Shown in pieces: positions 3,516 through 4,948 of a stretch of DNA of 22,965 nt. Location of the stretch: IMG/VR virus record IMGVR_UViG_3300045988_053025. One strand, 5' to 3'. The notes under the pieces were generated by a model. The model worked only from the letters and a program-made list of their open reading frames with translations. It was not told where the DNA came from and did not search any database. The position numbers were made by a program, and so were the translations under genes. Numbering within the stretch: position 1 is the stretch's first letter; each line of letters begins with the position of its first letter. Origin of the DNA: a virus. Lineage: Duplodnaviria > Heunggongvirae > Uroviricota > Caudoviricetes.

Positions 3516-3557
3516 TCCGCTGGTGGGGATAATGTCGTTGATATCCTCTGATGAGGA

Positions 3558-3590
3558 TAAAACAAAGCCAGCTCATCGGCTGGCTGTTTG
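3558..3590. terminator. stem-loop between convergent genes, likely terminator for the minus-strand ORF
   Basis: 7-bp stem AGCCAGC/GCTGGCT (3566-3572 / 3579-3585) with a 6-nt loop. On the minus strand it is followed by TTGTTTT; on the plus strand only by GTTTG. A second hairpin TATCCTC-TGAT-GAGGATA sits at 3542-3559. Confidence 0.45.
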
Positions 3591-3601
3591 TGACATGTCA
3601 C
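3590..3601. repeat. 12-bp perfect palindrome GTGACATGTCAC, copy 2
   Basis: Read directly; lies between the terL stop (3515) and the stop of the minus-strand ORF (3606-3608). Confidence 0.9.
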
Positions 3602-3605
3602 GGTG

Positions 3606-4025
3606 TTATTTAATGGCATTAAATCCAGCGTTGATGGCTTCCGCAATATTGATGGCACTTGTTTTATCGAAGTGCCCATTCTGAATAAGCGCCGCATGCA
3701 GGCATTGTAACTTCATGTTGTATAAGTGTTCGCTCATGTAATCATTATCACTTTTTGCTTTAGCGTAAACAGCGCGAGAAATATCAAACACATCGCCTTT
3801 TTCCATTTCAGAACGTTGTGCTGTTATCCAGTCATGGAACGTAACGCTAGTACCATGGTCTTCGCTAAGAGTTAACCCGGCCAGTCCCTCACTCTGAATT
3901 ACTTCGTAATGCATTTCATTATCAGCAAAAACGCCATAAAAAATGCAGTCTTCAGCCTGAACGATACGAGAATATTTTAATGGCCATTCATTTAGATACT
4001 TAGCCAACATATCAATTGTCTTCAT
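3606..4025 (-). CDS. hypothetical protein (139 aa), orphan accessory ORF
   Basis: Minus-strand ORF with ATG at 4025-4023 and an AAGGTG Shine-Dalgarno (reverse complement of 4031-4036) 5 nt upstream. Oriented against the packaging operon. No family recognised. Confidence 0.55.
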   Translation of the reverse strand: MKTIDMLAKYLNEWPLKYSRIVQAEDCIFYGVFADNEMHYEVIQSEGLAGLTLSEDHGTSVTFHDWITAQRSEMEKGDVFDISRAVYAKAKSDNDYMSEHLYNMKLQCLHAALIQNGHFDKTSAINIAEAINAGFNAIK

Positions 4026-4036
4026 GATCTCACCTT

Positions 4037-4060
4037 AAAAAAATGCCCGGCGAACCGGGC
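4037..4060 (-). terminator. rho-independent terminator (minus strand)
   Basis: Hairpin GCCCGG-CGAA-CCGGGC (4045-4060) followed on the minus strand by a 7-nt T run (plus-strand A run 4037-4043). Sits between the tRNA and the RBS of the 139-aa ORF. Confidence 0.6.
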
Positions 4061-4223
4061 GAACTGGAAGCAATGAGTTATGCCTTCCGTGGCTGTACTG
4101 GTTTACAGCATGAAGTCATCGCAATGGCGTCCTGCTGTAAAAAGGGCGGTGATAGTTCTTCAAGGGAAACCATCACCGCCAAGCACCTGGAACTTCTGGC
4201 ATCACGGTCCTTAGGCGTGATTC

Positions 4224-4300
4224 TGGCGTGGCATGCAGGATTCGAACCTGCGACCAACTGCTTAGAAGGCGGTTGCTCTGTCCAACTGAGCTAATGCCAC
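4224..4300 (-). tRNA. tRNA-Arg (anticodon UCU)
   Basis: Reverse complement reads as a 77-nt cloverleaf: GTGGCATTAGCTCAGTTGGACAGAGCAACCGCCTTCTAAGCAGTTGGTCGCAGGTTCGAATCCTGCATGCCACGCCA. 7-bp acceptor stem, D-arm GCTC/GAGC, anticodon loop CTTCTAA, T-arm GCAGG-TTCGAAT-CCTGC, discriminator G and encoded CCA. One C-A mismatch in the anticodon stem. It differs from host argU as I recall it. Confidence 0.8.
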
Positions 4301-4727
4301 AACGCTGAGAGCACTTAGCCTGTTAAGGCGCCACACTTTGTCGCGGCTCCATAAATGCTCTCATCGTTGTACCCTCGTCTCTTCCGAGGCGTCACACCGA
4401 ATCGCCGGGATGGTGAATCCCCGTGCGCGGAATAAAACCGCTCGACTTGCACATTCCGGCTACCTGGTTCGTTTGCTCGAGCAAGTGAGGGTGCCCCTTA
4501 AACGTATCCAGACCGCTATCGGCGCATGTGCCATACGCCGTACTGCTCAAAATAAAAGCTCACTCCACCTGTTCAATTTAACGACAAGCCAGTCAGGTTA
4601 ATAACCGGAATGAACTCTTTGCTTACCTGAAAGGTAATAATTCGTGCATTAAATGTCAACTATCTACGATAAATAAATCATATGTGGTTAAATTGGTAAT
4701 AATTTAATTGCGTACGGAGTCATTGAT

Positions 4728-4934
4728 ATGTGCATGGGTAGCTCACCATCAGTGCCTGCAACACCAGAAGTTCAGGCAGCACCACAGGAGCAGGATGCCG
4801 CCGTTGTTGATGCCCGCGACGAAGAAACACGTCGCCGTCGCGCTGCTGCTGGTCGTAGTTCTACGCTGCTTACCGGTTCTCAGGGCGACACATCAACCGC
4901 TAATACCAGCGGTAAAACGCTGCTTGGTCAGTAA
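4728..4934 (+). CDS. hypothetical small protein (68 aa), low complexity
   Basis: ATG at 4728 preceded by GGAG with ~8-nt spacing, directly upstream of the portal gene. Ala/Gln/Arg/Ser/Thr-rich, which could equally be a non-coding artefact. Confidence 0.35.
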   Translation: MCMGSSPSVPATPEVQAAPQEQDAAVVDARDEETRRRRAAAGRSSTLLTGSQGDTSTANTSGKTLLGQ

Positions 4935-4948
4935 CCGGAGTCATTGAA

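Follow-up and report, generated by a model that had tools for sequence, protein, structure and literature searches.

A conserved structured RNA between the terminase and portal genes of an epsilon15-like phage, and a possible leftward RNA operon around it

The DNA analysed here (the window) is a stretch of 22,965 nucleotides from a tailed phage, IMG/VR record IMGVR_UViG_3300045988_053025, and this work concerns positions 3516-4948, the gap of about 1.4 kb that separates its large terminase gene from its portal gene. Besides a 139-aa open reading frame (ORF) on the minus strand, a tRNA-Arg(UCU) and a 68-aa ORF, the gap contains a non-coding RNA of about 250 nt on the minus strand (4547 to 4297), which has five helices and a pseudoknot and whose pairs covary among its homologues. 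The locus as such is already known and annotated in related phages, while the structured RNA appears to be undescribed. We propose, at a probability of about one half, that the locus is a leftward, probably repressor-controlled operon of non-coding RNA, which would deliver an early RNA that, once processed, stands by itself and works in trans on a component of the host or the phage.

Region 3300-5200 of the window is 93-99% identical to the Escherichia phages HEMP4, PAS61, phiV10, O157 typing phages 9 and 10, ZX5 and TL-2011b, and 77-86% identical to relatives from Salmonella, Klebsiella and Enterobacter, including epsilon15. Judged by this similarity, the window is that of a Uetakevirus podophage of the phiV10/epsilon15 type. 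Two IMG/VR contigs, L030 and L068, align over the whole locus at 69-81% identity (up to 87% for L068). The annotated relatives phiV10, epsilon15 and PAS61 share one gene order, namely terS, terL, a reverse ORF, a non-coding stretch, the 68-aa ORF and the portal gene, and the gap is a genus-wide layout that is not private to the window phage. A preliminary description of the gap, made from the window alone, had taken the 1.4 kb as an insertion between genes that normally adjoin; the layout is instead common to all Uetakevirus, and solely 3611-4024 is an exchanged cassette. The features it listed (hairpins, a palindrome, the reverse ORF, a terminator, the tRNA and the 68-aa ORF) were all recovered at or near the places it gave. 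It had also considered that relatives might conserve genes with structural roles here: the genes are indeed conserved in place, but none has a known structural role.

On the left the gap is bounded by ORF 2040-3515 (plus strand), which has no Pfam terminase match, its match to DEAD_2 being weak and sub-threshold; it is identified as terL because its homologues are annotated so in phiV10, epsilon15 and PAS61. The right boundary is the portal (head-to-tail connector) gene at 4949-6628 (plus strand; PF12236, E=7e-188). Directly upstream of it, the 68-aa ORF at 4728-4934 (plus strand) matches PHROG 831 (E=2.4e-36, or about 2e-36) and is kept at the same position across the genus, its counterparts being gp3 of epsilon15, PhiV10p06 and an ORF in PAS61; a search against PDB sequences gave nothing significant. 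The PADLOC defence profiles returned no family at E<=1 for either the 139-aa or the 68-aa ORF.

The structured RNA was modelled from alignments of 29 and 78 distinct sequences, and its core (4546 to 4363, minus strand, 184 nt) matches the covariance model, R1, with 148.7 bits (E~1e-43). In the direction of the minus strand, the core comprises first the hairpin P1 (4540-4520) and the bipartite helix P2 (4516-4508 with 4466-4459) and continues with an invariant 19-mer, GGUAGCCGGAAUGUGCAAG, at 4464-4446. An additional, variable hairpin, P3a (4441-4427), is followed by helix P3b (4421-4407), the CACC loop of which (within 4417-4410) forms the pseudoknot with GGUG in the downstream strand (within 4399-4391). 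Next come helix P4 (4389-4373), a 5-bp hairpin with the loop GAAGAGA, and the closing stem P5 (4370 to 4299), which has arms at 4370-4352 and 4317-4299 and a variable tip, and the 3' arm of which ends at the first bases of the tRNA. The arms of P5 are 19 nt long and 89% complementary. P5 is formed in eight divergent types, with energies from -11.8 to -23.8 kcal/mol, and cognate arms pair more stably on average than non-cognate ones (-18.3 versus -14.6). Long unpaired stretches of the RNA are also invariant.

The base pairs stand out clearly from controls. For 27 pairs in the five helices, 97.3% of the alignment cells hold standard pairs, compared with 28-50% in controls that slide the 3' partners by 1-3 columns, in both alignments. 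Compensatory change occurs at 12 pairs, and the covariation score is 0.29-0.31 versus 0.02-0.08 for the slid controls, a value reached by none of 500 shuffles. The pseudoknot pair covaries as well (CG in 60 sequences, AU in 18), despite its absence from the alignment model. Two other approaches to the structure were discarded: a naive all-against-all covariation scan was too noisy, since G-U pairs were tolerated, and a long-range GCACAU/AUGUGC pairing proposed by RNAalifold lies in columns that are all invariant and competes with the covarying hairpin P1. A 4-bp loop contact, GCAC/GUGC, is possible. We also dropped a T-box-like reading, in which the UGGC loop of hairpin P1 would pair with the GCCA end of the tRNA, because the loop is invariant even beside a different tRNA.

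The strand of the RNA follows from its G-U pairs. Three near-invariant pairs (UG in 76, UG in 77 and GU in 47 sequences) would be C-A mismatches on the opposite strand and are legitimate on the minus strand only. Every adjacent tRNA, at 129 loci, and the flanking genes in all annotated records are co-oriented with the RNA. The alternative that the conserved block is a plus-strand protein gene (ORF 4338-4601, 87 aa), a plus-strand RNase III processing site or a site acting at the level of DNA has the following in its favour: up to 67 of the 78 distinct homologues have an antisense frame that crosses the element without a stop, coding sequences (CDSs) are annotated over it in mEp460 (gp37) and mEp390 (gp36), the epsilon15 record has a plus-strand RNase III site that overlaps the remnant of helix P1, and the plus strand folds better than shuffled sequences (z = -2.25). 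Nevertheless, the four conserved blocks stand in 12 different relative reading phases among the 78 homologues, and the stop-free frames use all three phases where the invariant motif lies, so that no protein is conserved and the element is not coding; the lengths of the element also do not differ by multiples of three. Since the G-U pairs are valid solely on the minus strand and the neighbouring tRNAs and genes all run with it, the plus-strand versions lose ground too, and of the readings weighed in this work we find this one the least probable. The preliminary description had seen no convincing ORF in 4301-4727, and the frame analysis bears this out. The two CDS calls across the RNA (gp37 at 2934-3302 of locus L004, mEp460; gp36 at 2842-3084 of locus L009, mEp390) are probably spurious in view of the frame analysis. 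PhiV10p04 (2672-2923 of locus L001), which runs antisense to the tRNA, is probably a spurious CDS call as well.

No described RNA family accounts for the element. Rfam 15 (4227 models), run against both strands of the window, gave only the tRNA at E<=1, and no Rfam model matched over the element in the homologous regions of mEp460, mEp390, BUCT708 and P1. The C4 antisense RNA model (RF01695) has no match in the window, nor has the RprA model (RF00034) at E<=1; the window also lacks the RprA core GUGUGUAGUC, the seed tested being GCUGUGUGUAGUC. The covariance-model scan of 4301-4727 that the preliminary description had proposed has yielded no Rfam family on either strand.

The RNA is found far beyond Uetakevirus. 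In a BLAST search with 4037-4727, window positions 4297-4541 were about 82% identical to unannotated DNA in the lambdoid phages mEp460, cdtI, Ayreon and 2H10 and in many Stx2c phages, and a focused search added P1, P7, D6 and SJ46 at about 78%, together with Stx2a phages, mEp390, Klebsiella phages and BUCT708, which is deposited as a Stenotrophomonas phage. The 19-mer, used as the probe GGTAGCCGGAATGTGCAAG, hits at least 120 IMG/VR contigs and, among the GTDB species representatives, 24 genomes, 22 of which are Enterobacterales, mostly Enterobacteriaceae; the other two, metagenome-assembled genomes labelled Bacillota/Oscillospiraceae, are probably contamination. By BLAST, the element is present in about a third of complete E. 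coli genomes (1840 of 5426). RefSeq shows no feature over it in any of the 40 E. coli records listed, the adjoining tRNA-Arg being the only feature there. In E. coli K-12, the RNA was not found in the CPS-53 region (yfdP-yfdT); upstream of yfdP (locus L158), CPS-53 keeps the yfdP-yfdT early-left genes, which come after the RNA in phages of the mEp460 type, and has lost the RNA and the repressor region, with GATTTTGACGGGTCA-like direct repeats instead.

As a rule there is one copy per phage. Model R1 finds one copy in the window, no second one elsewhere in phiV10, and a truncated remnant in epsilon15, in which the deletion of 4175-4505 has removed the tRNA and most of the structured RNA. Each lambdoid phage record has the RNA in one place, and none was found in the roughly 3 kb of PR-side flank fetched. 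The IMG/VR contig L027 carries two tandem, co-oriented copies about 800 nt apart (4797-4963 and 3990-4158, both minus strand; 174 and 134 bits).

Upstream of the RNA in the window lies a predicted minus-strand promoter (4623-4659), with a -35 hexamer TTGACA at 4659-4654, a spacer of 17 nt at 4653-4637 and a -10 hexamer TACCTT at 4636-4631. Its -10 region and predicted start are covered by a TTACC-N5-GGTAA palindrome, TTACCtttcaGGTAA, at 4637-4623; the epsilon15 record labels the equivalent palindrome a repressor binding site. L068 and L030 have retained both hexamers at the same distance, together with the palindrome, but differ in the sequence of the spacer. From the position of the promoter, a leader of about 80 nt (about 4624 to 4547, minus strand) with a weak hairpin at 4608-4589 would precede the RNA. 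The preliminary description had supposed that the ORF-free stretch could hold a promoter or a small RNA; a predicted promoter with operator and an RNA are both there, but the RNA is a structured molecule of about 250 nt and not a short small RNA. There are four copies of the palindrome in the window versus 0.46 expected. Two further copies (1415-1429 and 1433-1447) lie in tandem between a terminator and the probable ATG of terS (about 1448-1450), and the fourth, at 22747-22761, lies about 60 nt upstream of ORF 22055-22687 (minus strand). Because there is no room for a promoter between the tandem copies and the terS start, repressor operator may not be the whole story of this palindrome. Transcribed into RNA, a copy would give a hairpin of 5 bp with a 5-nt loop.

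Downstream of the RNA and the tRNA, the minus strand runs into terminators. A terminator scan found four terminator-like sites versus 1.9 expected by chance. T1 (4135-4180, minus strand), which the preliminary description had overlooked, has a 14-bp stem at 4180 to 4145 and the tail CTTTTTACAG, and is followed by a further hairpin (4141 to 4102) between T1 and T2. T2 (4038-4060, minus strand) consists of the stem GCCCGG-TTCG-CCGGGC at 4060 to 4045 and A-T7, after which come AAGGTGAGATC and the ATG of the reverse ORF, just as the preliminary description had it when it placed an intrinsic terminator against the ribosome binding site (RBS) of this ORF. T1 is conserved with stem substitutions in L030 and L068, and T2 with stem changes in these two contigs and others. 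A bidirectional terminator-like hairpin at 3566-3585, with the minus-strand site AGCCAGCCGATGAGCTGGCT and TTGTTTTATC, is common to terL on the plus strand and the reverse ORF on the minus strand; the phiV10 record annotates a terminator at the equivalent place. T1, T2 and the bidirectional hairpin form three successive minus-strand terminators that face terL, and this arrangement fits a polymerase that is sensitive to terminators. The bidirectional hairpin is flanked by an inverted repeat, ATCCTCtgatGAGGAT, at 3543-3558, and between it and the stop codon of the reverse ORF is a perfect 12-bp palindrome, GTGACATGTCAC, at 3590-3601, which L068 has kept although the ORF is deleted there. T1 also resembles a degenerate 3' half of RprA (compare window 4135-4200, minus strand) that lacks the GUGUGUAGUC core.

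The reverse ORF (3606-4025, minus strand; 139 aa; ATG at 4025, stop at 3606), which we call the cargo ORF, occupies a swappable slot. The preliminary description regarded it as an orphan. In fact, it belongs to PHROG 4846 (E=2.9e-88, residues 1-139 on 1-139 of the 140 profile positions), a family whose function is not known, and has 102 homologues, all unnamed and without Pfam domains, with named sources in the Enterobacteriaceae (E. coli, Salmonella, Citrobacter, Klebsiella, Leclercia and Cronobacter); the term uncharacterised fits it better than orphan. Alignment with related phages sets the boundaries of the exchange: homology with phiV10 covers 3300-3610 and 4025-5000, so that the swap comprises exactly the coding sequence (3611-4024), while the RBS, both upstream terminators and the bidirectional downstream terminator lie in the constant flanks and not in the cassette. 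At this slot phiV10 has a different ORF, annotated as Sf6 gene-66-like, L030 has a 262-aa ORF, and L068 has a remnant of eight codons next to the entire RNA unit. Only 11 nt separate the U-tract of T2 from the cargo ATG, and the sequence upstream of the ATG is shared by phages with other ORFs; since this leaves no room for a promoter, read-through is the only route of expression compatible with the architecture. The cargo ORF would then be expressed by read-through, as the preliminary description had surmised.

These boundaries bear on the view that the locus is an ordinary accessory insertion of the moron type, in which the ORF and the tRNA are functional and the rest is spacer and promoter. 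The ORF does vary between relatives, and phage tRNA-Arg(UCU) genes are common, 1563 phage records having matched a query that contained the tRNA. However, a moron has its own promoter, ORF and terminator; here, the consensus scan of 3400-5100 gave no promoter-like site, which leaves the ORF without a promoter of its own, and the downstream terminator is shared with terL. In addition, the best conserved and most widely shared part is the non-coding one, which reaches unrelated lambdoid phages and P1 with structure-preserving substitutions. We therefore consider an ordinary moron very unlikely.

The tRNA-Arg(UCU) at 4224-4300 (minus strand), which was already noted in the preliminary description, is found by ARAGORN and by the Rfam tRNA model RF00005 (68 bits, gathering score 29); its CCA end is encoded, and it reads AGA. 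The phiV10 RefSeq record lists no tRNA feature at this position. AGA makes up 7.6 per 1000 codons in the ORFs of the window, several-fold above the E. coli average, and is concentrated in the two largest virion genes and in ORF 22055-22687 (minus strand). Codon supplementation is an ordinary and sufficient explanation of the tRNA. ORF 22055-22687 (210 aa, no Pfam match), in which AGA accounts for 10 of the 14 arginine codons, is the most AGA-dependent gene of the window and, by this codon usage, a likely client of the tRNA.

Taken together, these features suggest how a leftward RNA operon might work. Transcription would start near 4624, at a promoter overlapped by the palindrome. Given the annotation of the equivalent palindrome in epsilon15 as a repressor operator, the lysogen would keep the operon silent, and derepression or infection would turn it on. 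The transcript would comprise the leader, the pseudoknotted RNA and the tRNA (4300 to 4224). As P5 ends where the tRNA begins, the RNase P cut at the 5' end of the tRNA would free the structured RNA as a discrete molecule, and the tRNA would supply AGA decoding for the AGA-rich phage genes. T1, T2 and the bidirectional terminator would close the unit and shield the converging terminase genes from antisense transcription. The cargo ORF, which has an RBS without a promoter, would sit in a pocket behind T2 and be transcribed only by polymerases that leak past both T1 and T2. The sequence features, the limits of the cassette, the distribution of the RNA and its conservation, covariation, strand and lack of coding are shown here, whereas promoter use, repressor control, release by RNase P, expression by read-through and a function in trans are all what we infer from the DNA sequence. 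Within this module the structured RNA is the conserved core: L030 and L068 retain the architecture of hexamers, palindrome, RNA, tRNA or stem-closed domain, T1 and T2, and since L068 retains the whole RNA unit beside a mere remnant of the cargo, the RNA unit is independent of the cargo. Terminators placed before the terminase genes make sense only with a polymerase that is still sensitive to them, which favours a stand-alone RNA.

The contexts of the RNA in other phages are diverse. In mEp460, Ayreon and Stx2a_WGPS2, it lies between a cI-type repressor gene and the first early-left gene; in mEp460 two TTGC-N7-GCAA operators, both recurring at OR, lie upstream of it, and this places the RNA in the PL leader of these phages. 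mEp390 and BUCT708 have it after promoter-like sites beside the repressor gene. In P1, its place is the C1-controlled ban operon, after tRNA-Ile(CAU) and before ban; this operon also has two other tRNAs and a DicF-like region. In the Klebsiella phage SopranoGao, it follows the lysis genes. The RNA often keeps company with other RNA genes: tRNA-Arg is directly 3' of it in Uetakevirus, tRNA-Ile(CAU) directly 5' in P1-like phages, an RprA-like module accompanies it in BUCT708 and the DicF-like region in P1. These neighbours would, by their positions, provide processing sites.

Where no tRNA follows, the slot after P5 is taken by a domain of 71-144 nt closed by GUUGUGG(U)/(A)CCACAAC, for instance at 3006-2872 (minus strand) of L004, at 5016-5111 (plus strand) of L068 and at many IMG/VR loci. 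At some of these loci, the closed domain is followed by CCA-AUCACGCC, as after a real tRNA, and the domain may be a decayed tRNA or a tRNA mimic. The L068 domain scores 29.7 bits with the Methylophilales-1 RNA model, which is sub-threshold (79.9). In mEp460, the domain after the RNA is closed by GUUGUGGUGA/UCACCACAAC, and then comes a T1-like hairpin ending in CTTTTTACA, all before the first ORF. Hairpins of the form GGCGGT...ACCGCC-CTTTTTACA, homologous to T1, are found downstream of the RNA in both mEp460 and mEp390. In mEp390 and BUCT708, a segment like the 3' half of the host small RNA RprA with a strong terminator follows the RNA. This segment (2855-2974, minus strand, of L008, the BUCT708 locus, and about 2620-2700, minus strand, of L009, the mEp390 locus) consists of AAUUGCUGUGUGUAGUCUUGGC, a hairpin and a U-run, and the RprA match in BUCT708 spans the full model with 50.2 bits, below the gathering score of 70. 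In 25 of 40 non-redundant contexts, one or more sense-strand terminators lie in the first 1 kb or so after the RNA, the totals being 36 sense and 12 antisense sites.

Such terminators raise the question of whether the RNA acts on the transcript that carries it. It may be a cis-acting processive antiterminator, either put-like or assisted by a factor, that would let RNA polymerase pass T1 and T2 into the cargo ORF and likewise pass the early-left terminators of the lambdoid phages. The put RNAs (putL and putR) are cis-acting antiterminator RNAs of the N-less lambdoid phage HK022 (PMC9378689). The antiterminator reading, which we hold to be possible but tentative, draws on the PL-leader site in phages without an annotated early-left N gene (mEp460, Ayreon and Stx2a_WGPS2), where terminator-like hairpins come after the RNA, before the early-left genes or interrupting them. 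For a related N-less phage that also carries yfbR, yfdQ and yfdP on the early-left side, a recent paper (PMC12315714) notes the absence of an N homologue and the possibility of a put-like RNA mechanism, a remark that counts in the same direction. The window has T1 and T2 interposed between the RNA and an ORF that lacks a promoter; that a tRNA can intervene between RNA and terminators fits a modified polymerase and not alternative pairing, and the long invariant unpaired stretches suggest a macromolecular partner. On the other hand, the RNA has no similarity to HK022 early-region DNA, in which put was not located, and is about three times the size of put; it occurs as a single copy in the phage records tested, with none in the PR-side flanks fetched. 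An antiterminator would also drive polymerase antisense into terL and terS past three terminators; L068 retains the RNA with nothing left to read into, and in P1 the RNA stands directly before ban with no terminator found in between. BUCT708 has boxB-like hairpins, (CUGACA)GCCGGGAAAGACCGGC, one of them upstream of the RNA, and these hint at a separate, protein-based system. They lie in the early-left leaders, at about 3229-3215, 2786-2770, 2722-2708 and 2677-2660 (minus strand) of L008 and about 2810-2790 (minus strand) of L009, and judging by their form, these repeats of BUCT708 and mEp390 are possibly nut-like sites for an N-like protein. The stronger version, that the RNA represents a new class of processive antiterminator unrelated to put, working as RNA only or with a host factor, which would supply early antitermination in N-less lambdoid and Shiga-toxin prophages and gate the cargo in epsilon15-like phages, is somewhat more doubtful.

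The same downstream terminators could belong to a riboswitch-like or attenuator leader, in which a ligand or factor would set termination at T1 and T2 or translation of the next gene. The size of the RNA, its number of invariant positions and its pseudoknot are typical of aptamers, and it lies 5' of genes, often with a terminator to follow (the 25 of 40 contexts above). However, the 77-nt tRNA plus 44 nt, or else the domain of 71-144 nt, separates the RNA from T1, and P5 has no U-tract, so that no mutually exclusive pairing with a terminator is apparent. The downstream genes share no function either: they are a tRNA, a helicase, early-left genes or nothing at all. We consider such a leader unlikely.

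The proposal of a leftward RNA operon with a free RNA must be held against several observations. The PL leader of mEp460 has a terminator-like hairpin after the RNA and before every early-left gene, and there are similar hairpins downstream of the RNA in BUCT708 and mEp390; something must overcome these leader hairpins, and this is what a cis antiterminator would do. In SopranoGao the RNA follows lysis genes and not an early promoter, and the acceptor-like stem with CCA is not universal among the tRNA-less relatives. The consensus scan did not call the predicted promoter, since its -10 hexamer agrees with the consensus at just 3 of 6 positions; what is conserved there may be the palindrome rather than a promoter, and the palindrome could just as well belong to a rightward promoter of gp3 and the portal gene. 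The start site, the processing and the terminator efficiencies are predictions.

Two neighbourhoods of known or likely immunity function deserve mention beside these contexts. In mEp460, positions 5351-5539 (plus strand) of L004 match isrK (67 bits) and C4 antisense RNA (83.6 bits, C4 at 5452-5539), inside or next to an antirepressor-like gene; this module of immunity RNAs is already known and has no relation to the new RNA. After its virion genes, the window itself looks like a secondary immunity region of the P22 immI type, with an Arc-like ribbon-helix-helix gene (PF03869, 19994-20455, minus strand) beside a gene for a protein with the P22 antirepressor N-terminal domain (PF10547, 20786-21721, plus strand).

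Rfam has no family for this strongly covarying RNA, and it goes unannotated. Its carriers include the classic model phages P1 and phiV10, Shiga-toxin phages and roughly one in three complete E. coli genomes. That the CPS-53 region of K-12 is without it may be why it was overlooked. Because it lies in a repressor-controlled early transcript wherever a promoter can be identified, it is probably among the first products after derepression. As a free RNA, it would count as a new phage factor that acts in trans; as an antiterminator, it would account for early-left expression in N-less lambdoid phages, a question flagged by specialists (PMC12315714). In the window, an apparently empty spacer would become the organising element of the locus, and this would explain why a promoter-less gene slot fronted by terminators is swapped so freely.

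Among known systems, the put RNAs of HK022 are close in position. The lambdoid homologues of the RNA are located where putL is, in the leader after the repressor-controlled PL of N-less phages, and both are structured RNAs in early transcripts that contain terminators. However, put is about 70 nt long with two stem-loops and occurs at both PL and PR, whereas the new RNA has about 185-250 nt, five helices and a pseudoknot and is single-copy in each phage. Unlike put, it is also found outside PL leaders, in the P1 ban operon, in the terL-portal gap of Uetakevirus and after the SopranoGao lysis genes. A comparison with HK022 25500-31500 (the O and P genes and about 4.5 kb upstream, within which put was not located) gave nothing by BLAST, by motif or with model R1. 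By analogy with put, the RNA might make RNA polymerase resistant to terminators through the zinc-binding domain of the beta' subunit, an idea for which position alone argues, the RNA being in the PL leader and ahead of terminators.

There are likenesses to the antitermination signals of lambda too. The GAAGA loop is that of lambda nutL boxB, and the GAAGAGA loop of P4 recalls it, which is a lead and not a test. The 3' arm of P5 contains the string UGCUCU(U/C), which is like the boxA sequences of lambda and the rrn operons, but this string is base-paired and its variation tracks the pairing partner, and no N-like protein has been identified. A different kind of precedent is given by C4 of P1 and P7 and the CI RNA of P4, early phage RNAs that are cut from a longer transcript by tRNA-processing enzymes. 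Their likeness to the new RNA lies in the tRNA 5' end that adjoins its closing stem; the RF01695 matches elsewhere in mEp460 make C4 and the new RNA distinct, and no antisense target has been identified for the latter.

The species 1 and 2 RNAs of T4 are stable RNAs co-transcribed with phage tRNAs, and ROOL and GOLLD are likewise associated with phages and tRNAs. ROOL and GOLLD have been treated as large ornate bacterial RNAs (PMC12286853). Like all of these, the new RNA is a phage-borne, structured non-coding RNA, co-oriented beside tRNA genes, with a function that is not known. It is, however, much smaller than ROOL and GOLLD and without an Rfam match, and it resides in enterobacterial temperate phages, where it follows a repressor-type operator wherever the promoter is identifiable. 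The literature searched (on P1 ban, N-less lambdoid phages, prophage small RNAs and structured-RNA surveys) does not describe an RNA at this position. Thus, while it fails every family test run, the RNA resembles in kind both the leader RNAs of phages and the RNAs that are linked to tRNAs.

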